Shown: positions 4,838-4,915 of the stretch, one piece after another
Position numbering within the stretch: the first letter of the stretch is position 1
Layout: each line of letters starts with the position of its first letter
From: Lytechinus pictus
Lineage: Eukaryota
NCBI RefSeq assembly: GCF_037042905.1
Contig: NC_087251.1
Coordinates: 30,196,001-30,260,000, forward strand
Reading direction: 5' to 3'
DNA: 64,000 bases
Translations under genes and position numbers: made by a program
The notes under the pieces: generated by a model
The model's input: the letters and a program-made list of their open reading frames with translations, nothing else
What the model was told of the DNA's origin: nothing
Databases searched by the model: none

Positions 4838-4909
4838 GTCTCTGTGGTCTAGTGGTTAAGGCACCAGCGTTCAAAGCTGGGGGCCTGGGTTCGATTCCCA
4901 GCAGAGACA
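4838..4909 (+). tRNA. tRNA-like cloverleaf with anticodon TCA (opal-suppressor-like); function unknown
   Basis: Acceptor GTCTCTG/CAGAGAC, D stem GTCT/AGGC with loop AGTGGTTA, anticodon stem CCAGC/GCTGG with loop GTTCAAA (TCA at 4871-4873), 4-nt variable loop, T stem CTGGG/CCCAG with loop TTCGATT, discriminator A. Confidence 0.65.
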
Positions 4910-4915
4910 TTTTTT
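4910..4915 (+). terminator. RNA polymerase III terminator-like T6 run
   Basis: TTTTTT immediately after the discriminator base of the cloverleaf. Confidence 0.55.

Follow-up and report, generated by a model that had tools for sequence, protein, structure and literature searches.

A tRNA-like gene with a UCA anticodon, probably selfish cargo, in a young ~405-bp repeat family of the sea urchin Lytechinus pictus

The window copy and its surroundings

The stretch of DNA analysed here, referred to as the window, comprises 64,000 nucleotides of the forward strand of contig NC_087251.1 (positions 30,196,001 to 30,260,000, assembly GCF_037042905.1) of Lytechinus pictus. On its plus strand, at 4838-4909, lies a 72-nt cloverleaf with the anticodon UCA, which can be read directly from the sequence and is recognized by both ARAGORN and Rfam. 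This tRNA-like gene forms positions 1-72 of a repeat unit of ~405 bp. Alignment of the unit by blastn revealed that 4613-5092 constitutes a single copy of 1.1 units together with its tail, proceeding from unit 181 to 405, then from unit 1 to 222, and ending in CA(TA)15; the 5′ end of the copy is located at 4613 or a few bases before. No further copies of the family were detected in the 64-kb window by ARAGORN or by blastn of the unit. The copy is composed of the following features.

4613-4837, plus strand: upstream spacer, unit 181-405 (blastn of the 405-nt unit; 97.8% identity with 5 mismatches in blastn of the consensus)
4613-4654, plus strand: first copy of a 42-nt overlap, unit 181-222 (blastn, consensus comparison)
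4838-4909, plus strand: tRNA-like gene (ARAGORN; Rfam RF00005 at 65.3 bits)
4845-4855, plus strand: A-box-like motif TGGTCTAGTGG within the tRNA-like gene
4869, plus strand: G32 of the tRNA-like gene (sequence)
4871-4873, plus strand: anticodon TCA within the tRNA-like gene
4888-4898, plus strand: B-box-like motif GGTTCGATTCC within the tRNA-like gene
4910-4915, plus strand: T6 run TTTTTT, resembling a Pol III terminator, directly 3′ of the discriminator base (sequence)
4916-5060, plus strand: downstream spacer, unit 79-222, whose 3′ limit is one of three recurrent end points of the family (blastn, consensus comparison)
5019-5060, plus strand: second copy of the 42-nt overlap, unit 181-222 (blastn, consensus comparison)
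5061-5092, plus strand: CA(TA)15 microsatellite tail of the insertion (sequence)

These limits differ from those given in a preliminary description of the locus, in which the insertion was placed at 4655-5017; homology to the unit as detected by blastn extends from 4613 to 5060. The flanking direct repeat is not a target duplication but the 42-nt overlap (unit 181-222) of a piece measuring 1.1 units. Both copies of the overlap carry identical private variants, A>T at unit 195 and T>C at unit 203, and the direct repeat in the window measures 58 nt at a spacing of 406. Compared with the family consensus, the window copy exhibits 11 differences in 448 positions, corresponding to a divergence of 2.5%. 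Three of them fall within the tRNA-like gene, at 4866 (G>A), 4886 (C>T), and 4900 (G>A), and all three are CpG transitions; taken together, the changes at 4886 and 4900 replace one C-G pair in the T stem by U-A.

The 5′ flank of the copy is unique sequence. A contig of run X1 (987 nt, depth 42) fits this flank up to 4614 and then continues into sequence foreign to the window; the break could reflect either an allele devoid of the insertion or a contig break induced by the repeat. Further upstream, an open frame of 460 amino acids at 761-2143 (plus strand) is 78% identical over its whole length to a 519-amino acid database protein featuring Pfam domain PF08424, presumably the NRDE-2 family, and is probably one large exon of a gene situated just upstream of the repeat copy. 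Elsewhere in the window, a 78-bp minisatellite occupies four blocks (52383-52991, 55105-56484, 58660-58875, and 60483-60650) with up to 17.9 copies at 89-98% matches, and yields long spurious minus-strand open frames with a 26-residue repeat. A low-complexity AT-rich tract is found at 46401-46880 and a (TTTC)37 microsatellite at 58371-58521.

Fold, identity and origin of the tRNA-like gene

All four stems of the cloverleaf are intact. The acceptor stem (GUCUCUG/CAGAGAC) consists of seven pairs, the D stem (GUCU/AGGC) of four including one G-U, the anticodon stem (CCAGC/GCUGG) of five, and the T stem (CUGGG/CCCAG) of five closing the T loop UUCGAUU. The D loop contains GG, the variable loop comprises 4 nt, the discriminator base is A, and the anticodon loop reads G32-U33-UCA-A37-A38. 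The preliminary description had reported this cloverleaf with a single G-U in the D stem, GG, TTCGA, U33, purine 37, the TCA loop, the T6 run, and G32, each of which is indeed present in the sequence. The canonical tRNA positions U8, A14, G18-G19, U33, purine 37, and the T-loop motif TTCRA are all occupied as expected. The sole defect is at position 32, where the pyrimidine is replaced by G in both the window copy and the family consensus; G32 is highly unusual in a decoding tRNA.

ARAGORN identifies 4838-4909 as the sole tRNA in the 64-kb window and labels it ‘SeC’, a designation deriving from the anticodon alone. The Rfam tRNA model RF00005 aligns over the full length (model positions 1-71) with a score of 65.3 bits (E 6e-12), well beyond the gathering score of 29. 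In the same kind of scan, the score exceeds those of the host tRNA-Glu-TTC (62.2 bits) and tRNA-Glu-CTC (59.4 bits). The possibility of a pseudogene-level score, considered in the preliminary description, has thus not materialized. In an Rfam scan of 4560-5120 allowing E values up to 10, the tRNA was the only credible match and no ribozyme was found. A mascRNA match at 28.7 bits in the same interval lies below its cut-off of 42.5 and was dismissed as a tRNA look-alike; likewise, an antisense plastid leader and miRNAs placed on the TA tract, all of them sub-threshold, were attributed to resemblance to tRNA or to TA repeats. The minimum-energy fold of the single strand (−31.5 kcal/mol, z = −2.99) differs from the cloverleaf, which renders the folding result uninformative.

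Despite its anticodon, the tRNA-like gene is not tRNA-Sec, as the preliminary description had already maintained. Two identical canonical tRNA-Sec genes of 87 nt, equipped with the long variable arm and scoring 76.9 bits on RF01852, are encoded elsewhere in the genome, on two different contigs (one at positions 1501-1586 of locus L031, the other in locus L032). While the UCA anticodon and the loop bases UUCAAA are common to the host tRNA-Sec and the tRNA-like gene, the latter measures 72 rather than 87 nt, displays a 7/5 fold and a 4-nt variable loop in place of the long arm, and carries G32 where tRNA-Sec has C32. In a scan of the window at gathering thresholds, RF00005 alone was reported at the locus, with no RF01852 match.

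Comparison with possible parents covered genes of the Glu type. Identity to the host tRNA-Glu-CTC is 81-83% in the core (positions 8-64), and tRNA-Glu-TTC has exactly the same T arm; full-length comparison with the host Glu tRNAs gives 57 of 72 and 54 of 72 matching positions. The anticodon stem lies one base out of register with that of Glu-CTC and has a different 3′ half. The acceptor stem is unrelated to that of tRNA-Glu, its 5′ strand matching tRNA-Asn. The earlier proposal of a tRNA-Glu(TTC) derivative with a slipped loop may consequently be retained in modified form: judged from sequence, a Glu derivative with a slipped loop is plausible for the core, whereas the acceptor stem must be left out of it. 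A further search for a parent, made with a 5′ motif, retrieved only tRNA-Asn genes, and these share nothing with the tRNA-like gene beyond the 5′ acceptor strand.

The genome also contains a classical tRNA-headed SINE family, found around position 1500 of each of the loci L037, L044, L046, L049, L050, and L053. Its head has the D arm and B box in common with tRNA-Glu, and, when the loop is aligned in the same way, several heads have TCA in the place of the anticodon.

Copy number, end points and spread of the family

Genome-wide counts refer to the whole 812-Mb assembly of 368 contigs. By pattern counting, the 24-nt anticodon arm was found 1,900 times without mismatch and 2,339 times with up to one mismatch, the reversed control yielding 0 in either case. 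A search with the 72-nt sequence returned at least 41 matches at 96-100% identity among 40 scored candidates, many of them 405-407 bp apart, and a query with the spacer gave 1,239 first-look candidates. The unit is thus repeated throughout the genome and apparently mobile, in line with the earlier suggestion that the tRNA-like gene is borne by a mobile element. The loop GTTCAAA is kept in 123 of 123 occurrences in 30 loci, a tally in which overlapping loci enter repeatedly; the stems are likewise all kept, so that the random anticodons and broken stems contemplated in the preliminary description were not encountered there. A run of T5-T7 is kept in most of the 123 occurrences and interrupted in a few. 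Divergence within the family amounts to only 1-3%.

The family occurs both as long tandem arrays and as short scattered pieces. Arrays with a period of 405-407 bp are present on several contigs; one contig carries at least 37 consecutive units, another an array of ~17 kb, and on two contigs the arrays extend over at least 15-17 kb. With its head-to-tail arrangement and constant unit the family qualifies as a satellite or tandem repeat, the window itself holding 1.1 units only. Some insertions appear in duplicate, with equal arm lengths and flanks: head-to-head pairs at 21.06 and 21.32 Mb of one contig (C6; loci L028 and L075), and another such pair at 9,140,640 and 9,146,052 of a second (C1). 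These duplicates, a few kb to 250 kb apart, suggest later segmental duplication of insertions or an assembly duplicate.

Host tRNA-Glu genes, too, reside in tandem arrays of similar period, and the array layout alone is therefore no mark of junk. The tRNA-Glu-TTC array has a period of ~386 bp (L055-L065, contig C16 around 2.595 Mb), and the looser tRNA-Glu-CTC array exhibits spacings of 490-1,900 bp (contig C17, 25.857-25.881 Mb). In both systems, each unit measures a few hundred bp and contains a single tRNA gene, that of the repeat having a Glu-CTC-like core and a Glu-TTC T arm. They differ in that the repeat has an unrelated spacer, no similarity to the spacers of the host Glu arrays having been found, as well as an unrelated acceptor stem, a stop-reading anticodon, and ~2,000 copies on many contigs with retroposon-like ends.

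End points were tallied at 28 non-overlapping loci, 18 reached via the tRNA and 10 via the spacer. The 3′ ends, defined in the sense of the tRNA, cluster at three unit positions in 43 of 47 cases (19 at 179-183, 12 at 222-223, and 12 at 229-230, with 4 elsewhere). All three positions are TA-rich stretches of the unit, and most 3′ ends directly adjoin a (TA)n or (CA)n(TA)n tail. The 5′ ends (n = 48), on the other hand, are spread irregularly over unit positions 1 to 382, and (TA)n adjoins at least 10 of them, indicating that many copies reside within TA microsatellites. Head-to-head (minus-then-plus) pairs with unequal arms account for 12 of the 28 loci, their 3′ ends and tails facing outward, and not a single tail-to-tail pair was observed. 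Among the first 100 genome-wide matches, eight minus/plus pairs lie within 2 kb of each other as compared with no plus/minus pairs. Clean target-site duplications were found in none of 8 copies examined, the window copy included; such duplications are not readable inside (TA)n.

Target-primed reverse transcription characteristically leaves a fixed 3′ end followed by a simple-repeat tail, 5′ ends truncated at random, and a strict polarity, and inverted arrangements similar to those seen here arise by twin priming of L1. The family displays the LINE-type features of fixed 3′ ends, simple-repeat tails, and scattered 5′ ends, and appears to have spread through RNA copies inserted into (TA)n in the manner of a LINE. 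For LINEs and SINEs, 3′ tails resembling microsatellites, also of the (AT)n type, have been described together with their pairing with the target, and RTE-related retroposons share with the present family a fixed 3′ end, a simple-repeat tail matching the target, inverted arrangements, and truncation to varying extents at the 5′ side (Nishiyama and Ohshima 2018, PMC6007223, in the part of that paper available). Several differences from LINE and SINE retroposons exist. For the family, the (TA)n microsatellite itself serves as target, priming may use any of three internal sites, the inverted arm likewise stops at a canonical 3′ site, which fits a multi-unit template, and no partner LINE is known.

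The favoured course of events may be outlined as follows. The family would spread by means of an RNA copy, of the same polarity as the tRNA and in many cases exceeding one unit, that is reverse transcribed at nicked (TA)n microsatellites. TA-rich stretches of this RNA would anneal to the target for priming and thereby generate the three fixed 3′ ends, whereas the 5′ ends would be truncated at random. Priming from both target strands, possible because (TA)n is its own complement, would account for the frequent head-to-head pairs, and the tRNA-like gene would be cargo copied from one master sequence. Copies exceeding one unit imply a multi-unit template; this begins in spacer 5′ of the tRNA and continues past the T6 terminator, and is hence not a Pol III transcript of the tRNA-like gene, which in turn sets the element apart from a classical tRNA-headed SINE. 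It seems likely, on the whole, that the repeat in the window belongs to a young ~405-bp family carrying a selfish tRNA cargo and propagated by copying of multi-unit RNA into (TA)n.

Satellite DNA might alternatively spread at the DNA level, by excised circles or by template switching at fragile (TA)n, with no RNA intermediate. The long homogeneous arrays fit such a route, as do the junctions at TA-rich unit positions, which suggest microhomology with (TA)n, the lack of clean target duplications in the 8 copies examined, and the failure to identify an autonomous partner LINE. It is nevertheless unlikely in view of the polarity of the insertions: the TA-linked junction is on the 3′ side in 43 of 47 ends with the other side scattered, and every inverted arrangement is head-to-head (12 of 12 loci, 8 of 8 close pairs), whereas a (TA)n end, which is self-complementary, would on invading DNA be expected to prime copying both ways. 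Far less credence can be given to an ordinary tRNA-headed SINE, transcribed from its tRNA promoter and mobilized by a LINE. Such an element would explain a tRNA-derived, 5′-truncated, microsatellite-tailed, dispersed repeat of high copy number, and the tRNA-derived SINEs and SINE-derived satellites of scaled reptiles (PMC10702118, as far as its available part goes) resemble the family in their tRNA-derived module with Pol III boxes, in their high copy number, in their dispersed 5′-truncated and microsatellite-tailed copies, and in the coexistence of tandem and interspersed forms. However, the tRNA-like gene of the family is a whole gene whose acceptor stem is complete and which outscores real tRNAs, and T6 follows it directly; the same copies contain ~225 nt of element sequence upstream of it, and copies longer than one unit are common. 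A tRNA-like gene situated mid-unit is not the promoter of the transposed RNA. The genuine tRNA-headed SINE of the host genome, by comparison, has no terminator and a long conserved body, and its head scores below the Rfam tRNA cut-off in L037.

Barely credible at all is a third candidate, a Helenus-type TRIM such as TRIMp3, that is, a miniature LTR retrotransposon with a tRNA-like sequence in its LTRs and LTR-internal-LTR arrays. The likeness lies in a non-autonomous retroelement bearing a tRNA-like sequence judged non-functional and in the tandem arrays reported for one animal Helenus family (Kojima 2024, PMC10886601, available part), and the window copy does possess a terminal direct repeat. 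Yet this repeat is only 42-58 nt long and excludes the tRNA, 5′ ends differ from copy to copy instead of being fixed, and no LTR pair is present. No purine tract of at least 9 nt occurs in the unit, the only primer-binding match is the trivial antisense of the family's own tRNA, and 4-5-bp duplications were absent from the 8 copies examined. The terms urchin, echinoderm, Lytechinus, and Strongylocentrotus have no occurrence in the available part of that paper. The multi-unit RNA template, together with a LINE partner, would remain the most suitable explanation for the distribution of the family.

Conservation and transcription of the tRNA-like gene

The preliminary description had raised the possibility of a working opal suppressor, a claim which the pattern of sequence decay does not support. 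Among the 439 anticodon arms with a single mismatch, corresponding to a mean of 18.3 per position, 19 are altered at position 36 (TCC 9, TCG 5, TCT 5) and 19 at position 35 (TTA 8, TAA 7, TGA 4), while position 34 shows 3 variants as opposed to ~18 at its neighbours. Variant anticodons are mostly scattered singletons, and neither a sense-anticodon subfamily nor a parent cluster was found among the single-mismatch arms genome-wide. With the exception of the lower value at position 34, the anticodon decays like neighbouring positions; TCA is retained owing to the youth of the family and not to selection. In 11 clusters chosen by their spacer, the tRNA carries 8 differences in 792 positions (1.0%) and the adjacent spacer 17 in 1039 (1.6%), a comparison (Fisher p = 0.31; p = 0.20 for non-CpG positions) to which a divergence of just 1-3% within the family leaves little power. 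The tRNA is therefore not significantly better conserved than the adjacent spacer in this small, unbiased sample, the trend being towards fewer differences in the tRNA. At loci matched by the tRNA itself, a seven-fold difference was obtained at non-CpG positions (4/1178 in the tRNA, 132/5442 in the spacer), but this result was rejected as evidence for conservation on the grounds that the query biases the sample.

Transcription was assessed in three raw-read RNA-seq runs labelled with the same species (X21, X22, and X23) and one contig set (X1), mapped to 4450-5200 at 90% likeness. Depth over the repeat ranged from 115 to 417 (X21), 14 to 277 (X22), and 12 to 199 (X23), with both mate directions about equally represented, compared with 1-5 along the unique sequence on the 5′ side and 0 on the 3′ side. 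Tandem junctions were spanned by 210 reads in X21. Nearly all reads display the consensus letters at 4866, 4886, and 4900 and consequently stem from other copies. Distributed over ~2,000 copies, a depth of roughly 450 amounts to ~0.2 per copy, a level that background transcription or DNA carry-over would suffice to produce. The profile is flat, with no drop at T6, no tRNA peak, and no preferred starts or ends, in libraries that are blind to mature tRNA; being ordinary paired-end cDNA preparations whose capture mature tRNA escapes, they speak neither for nor against a Pol III product.

Whether the copies might be active Pol III genes must be judged on these grounds. Such genes would produce a stable UCA tRNA-like RNA, which would be aminoacylated and decode UGA with low efficiency, or else supply tRNA fragments or act as a processing signal for RNase P/Z. 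The score of 65.3 bits, above those of the host tRNA-Glu genes, speaks in favour of this idea, as do the A- and B-box-like motifs and the T6 run kept in most copies, the four intact stems in at least 1,900 copies, and the somewhat lower divergence of the tRNA relative to the spacer in both samples. Support of the compensatory kind envisaged in the preliminary description comes from the paired T-stem change from C-G to U-A in the window copy; however, all three changes in this copy are CpG transitions, which are expected mutational hot spots. The anticodon decays at the rate of its neighbours, no significant excess of conservation persists once ascertainment bias is removed, and G32 would be an odd choice for a decoding tRNA. 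Aminoacylation poses a further obstacle. AlaRS would find no G3-U70 to recognize, and SerRS and LeuRS no long variable arm; most of the remaining synthetases rely on the anticodon, where UCA matches no sense tRNA. C35, A36, A73, and G1-C72 would suit tryptophan identity, but to our knowledge no synthetase has an obvious claim on the tRNA-like gene, tryptophan being the nearest guess. Furthermore, two thousand expressed opal suppressors would be expected to be harmful. Active Pol III genes in this general sense are accordingly quite improbable, somewhat more so than spread at the DNA level. Odds longer still apply to the more specific proposal that the ~2,000 copies are live Pol III genes whose abundant, CCA-tailed UCA RNA serves, in an animal using the standard code, as a weakly charged opal suppressor or as an RNase P/Z signal resembling mascRNA, by which transcripts of several units would be cut down to templates for retrotransposition. 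Most likely, the tRNA-like gene is selfish cargo and would lack the activity of a working stop-codon suppressor.

While the question of the tRNA is an ordinary one, the mobile element around it is unusual in that a (TA)n-seeking retroposon or satellite, spanning more than one unit, houses a tRNA-like gene that is complete and self-terminating. In full-text literature searches, no published description was found of the family, of a (TA)n-targeting tRNA-bearing repeat of sea urchins, or of suppressor-type tRNA genes in these animals. For annotation, the family adds about two thousand high-scoring ‘suppressor’ or ‘SeC’ calls to tRNA scans, and its copies should be masked as repeats. Among mobile elements it falls outside the standard boxes, linking satellite arrays with dispersed retroposons, and it merits a proper description. 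If copies were expressed, they would form the largest tRNA-like gene family of the animal and would offer a natural test of how far cells tolerate stop-reading tRNAs.
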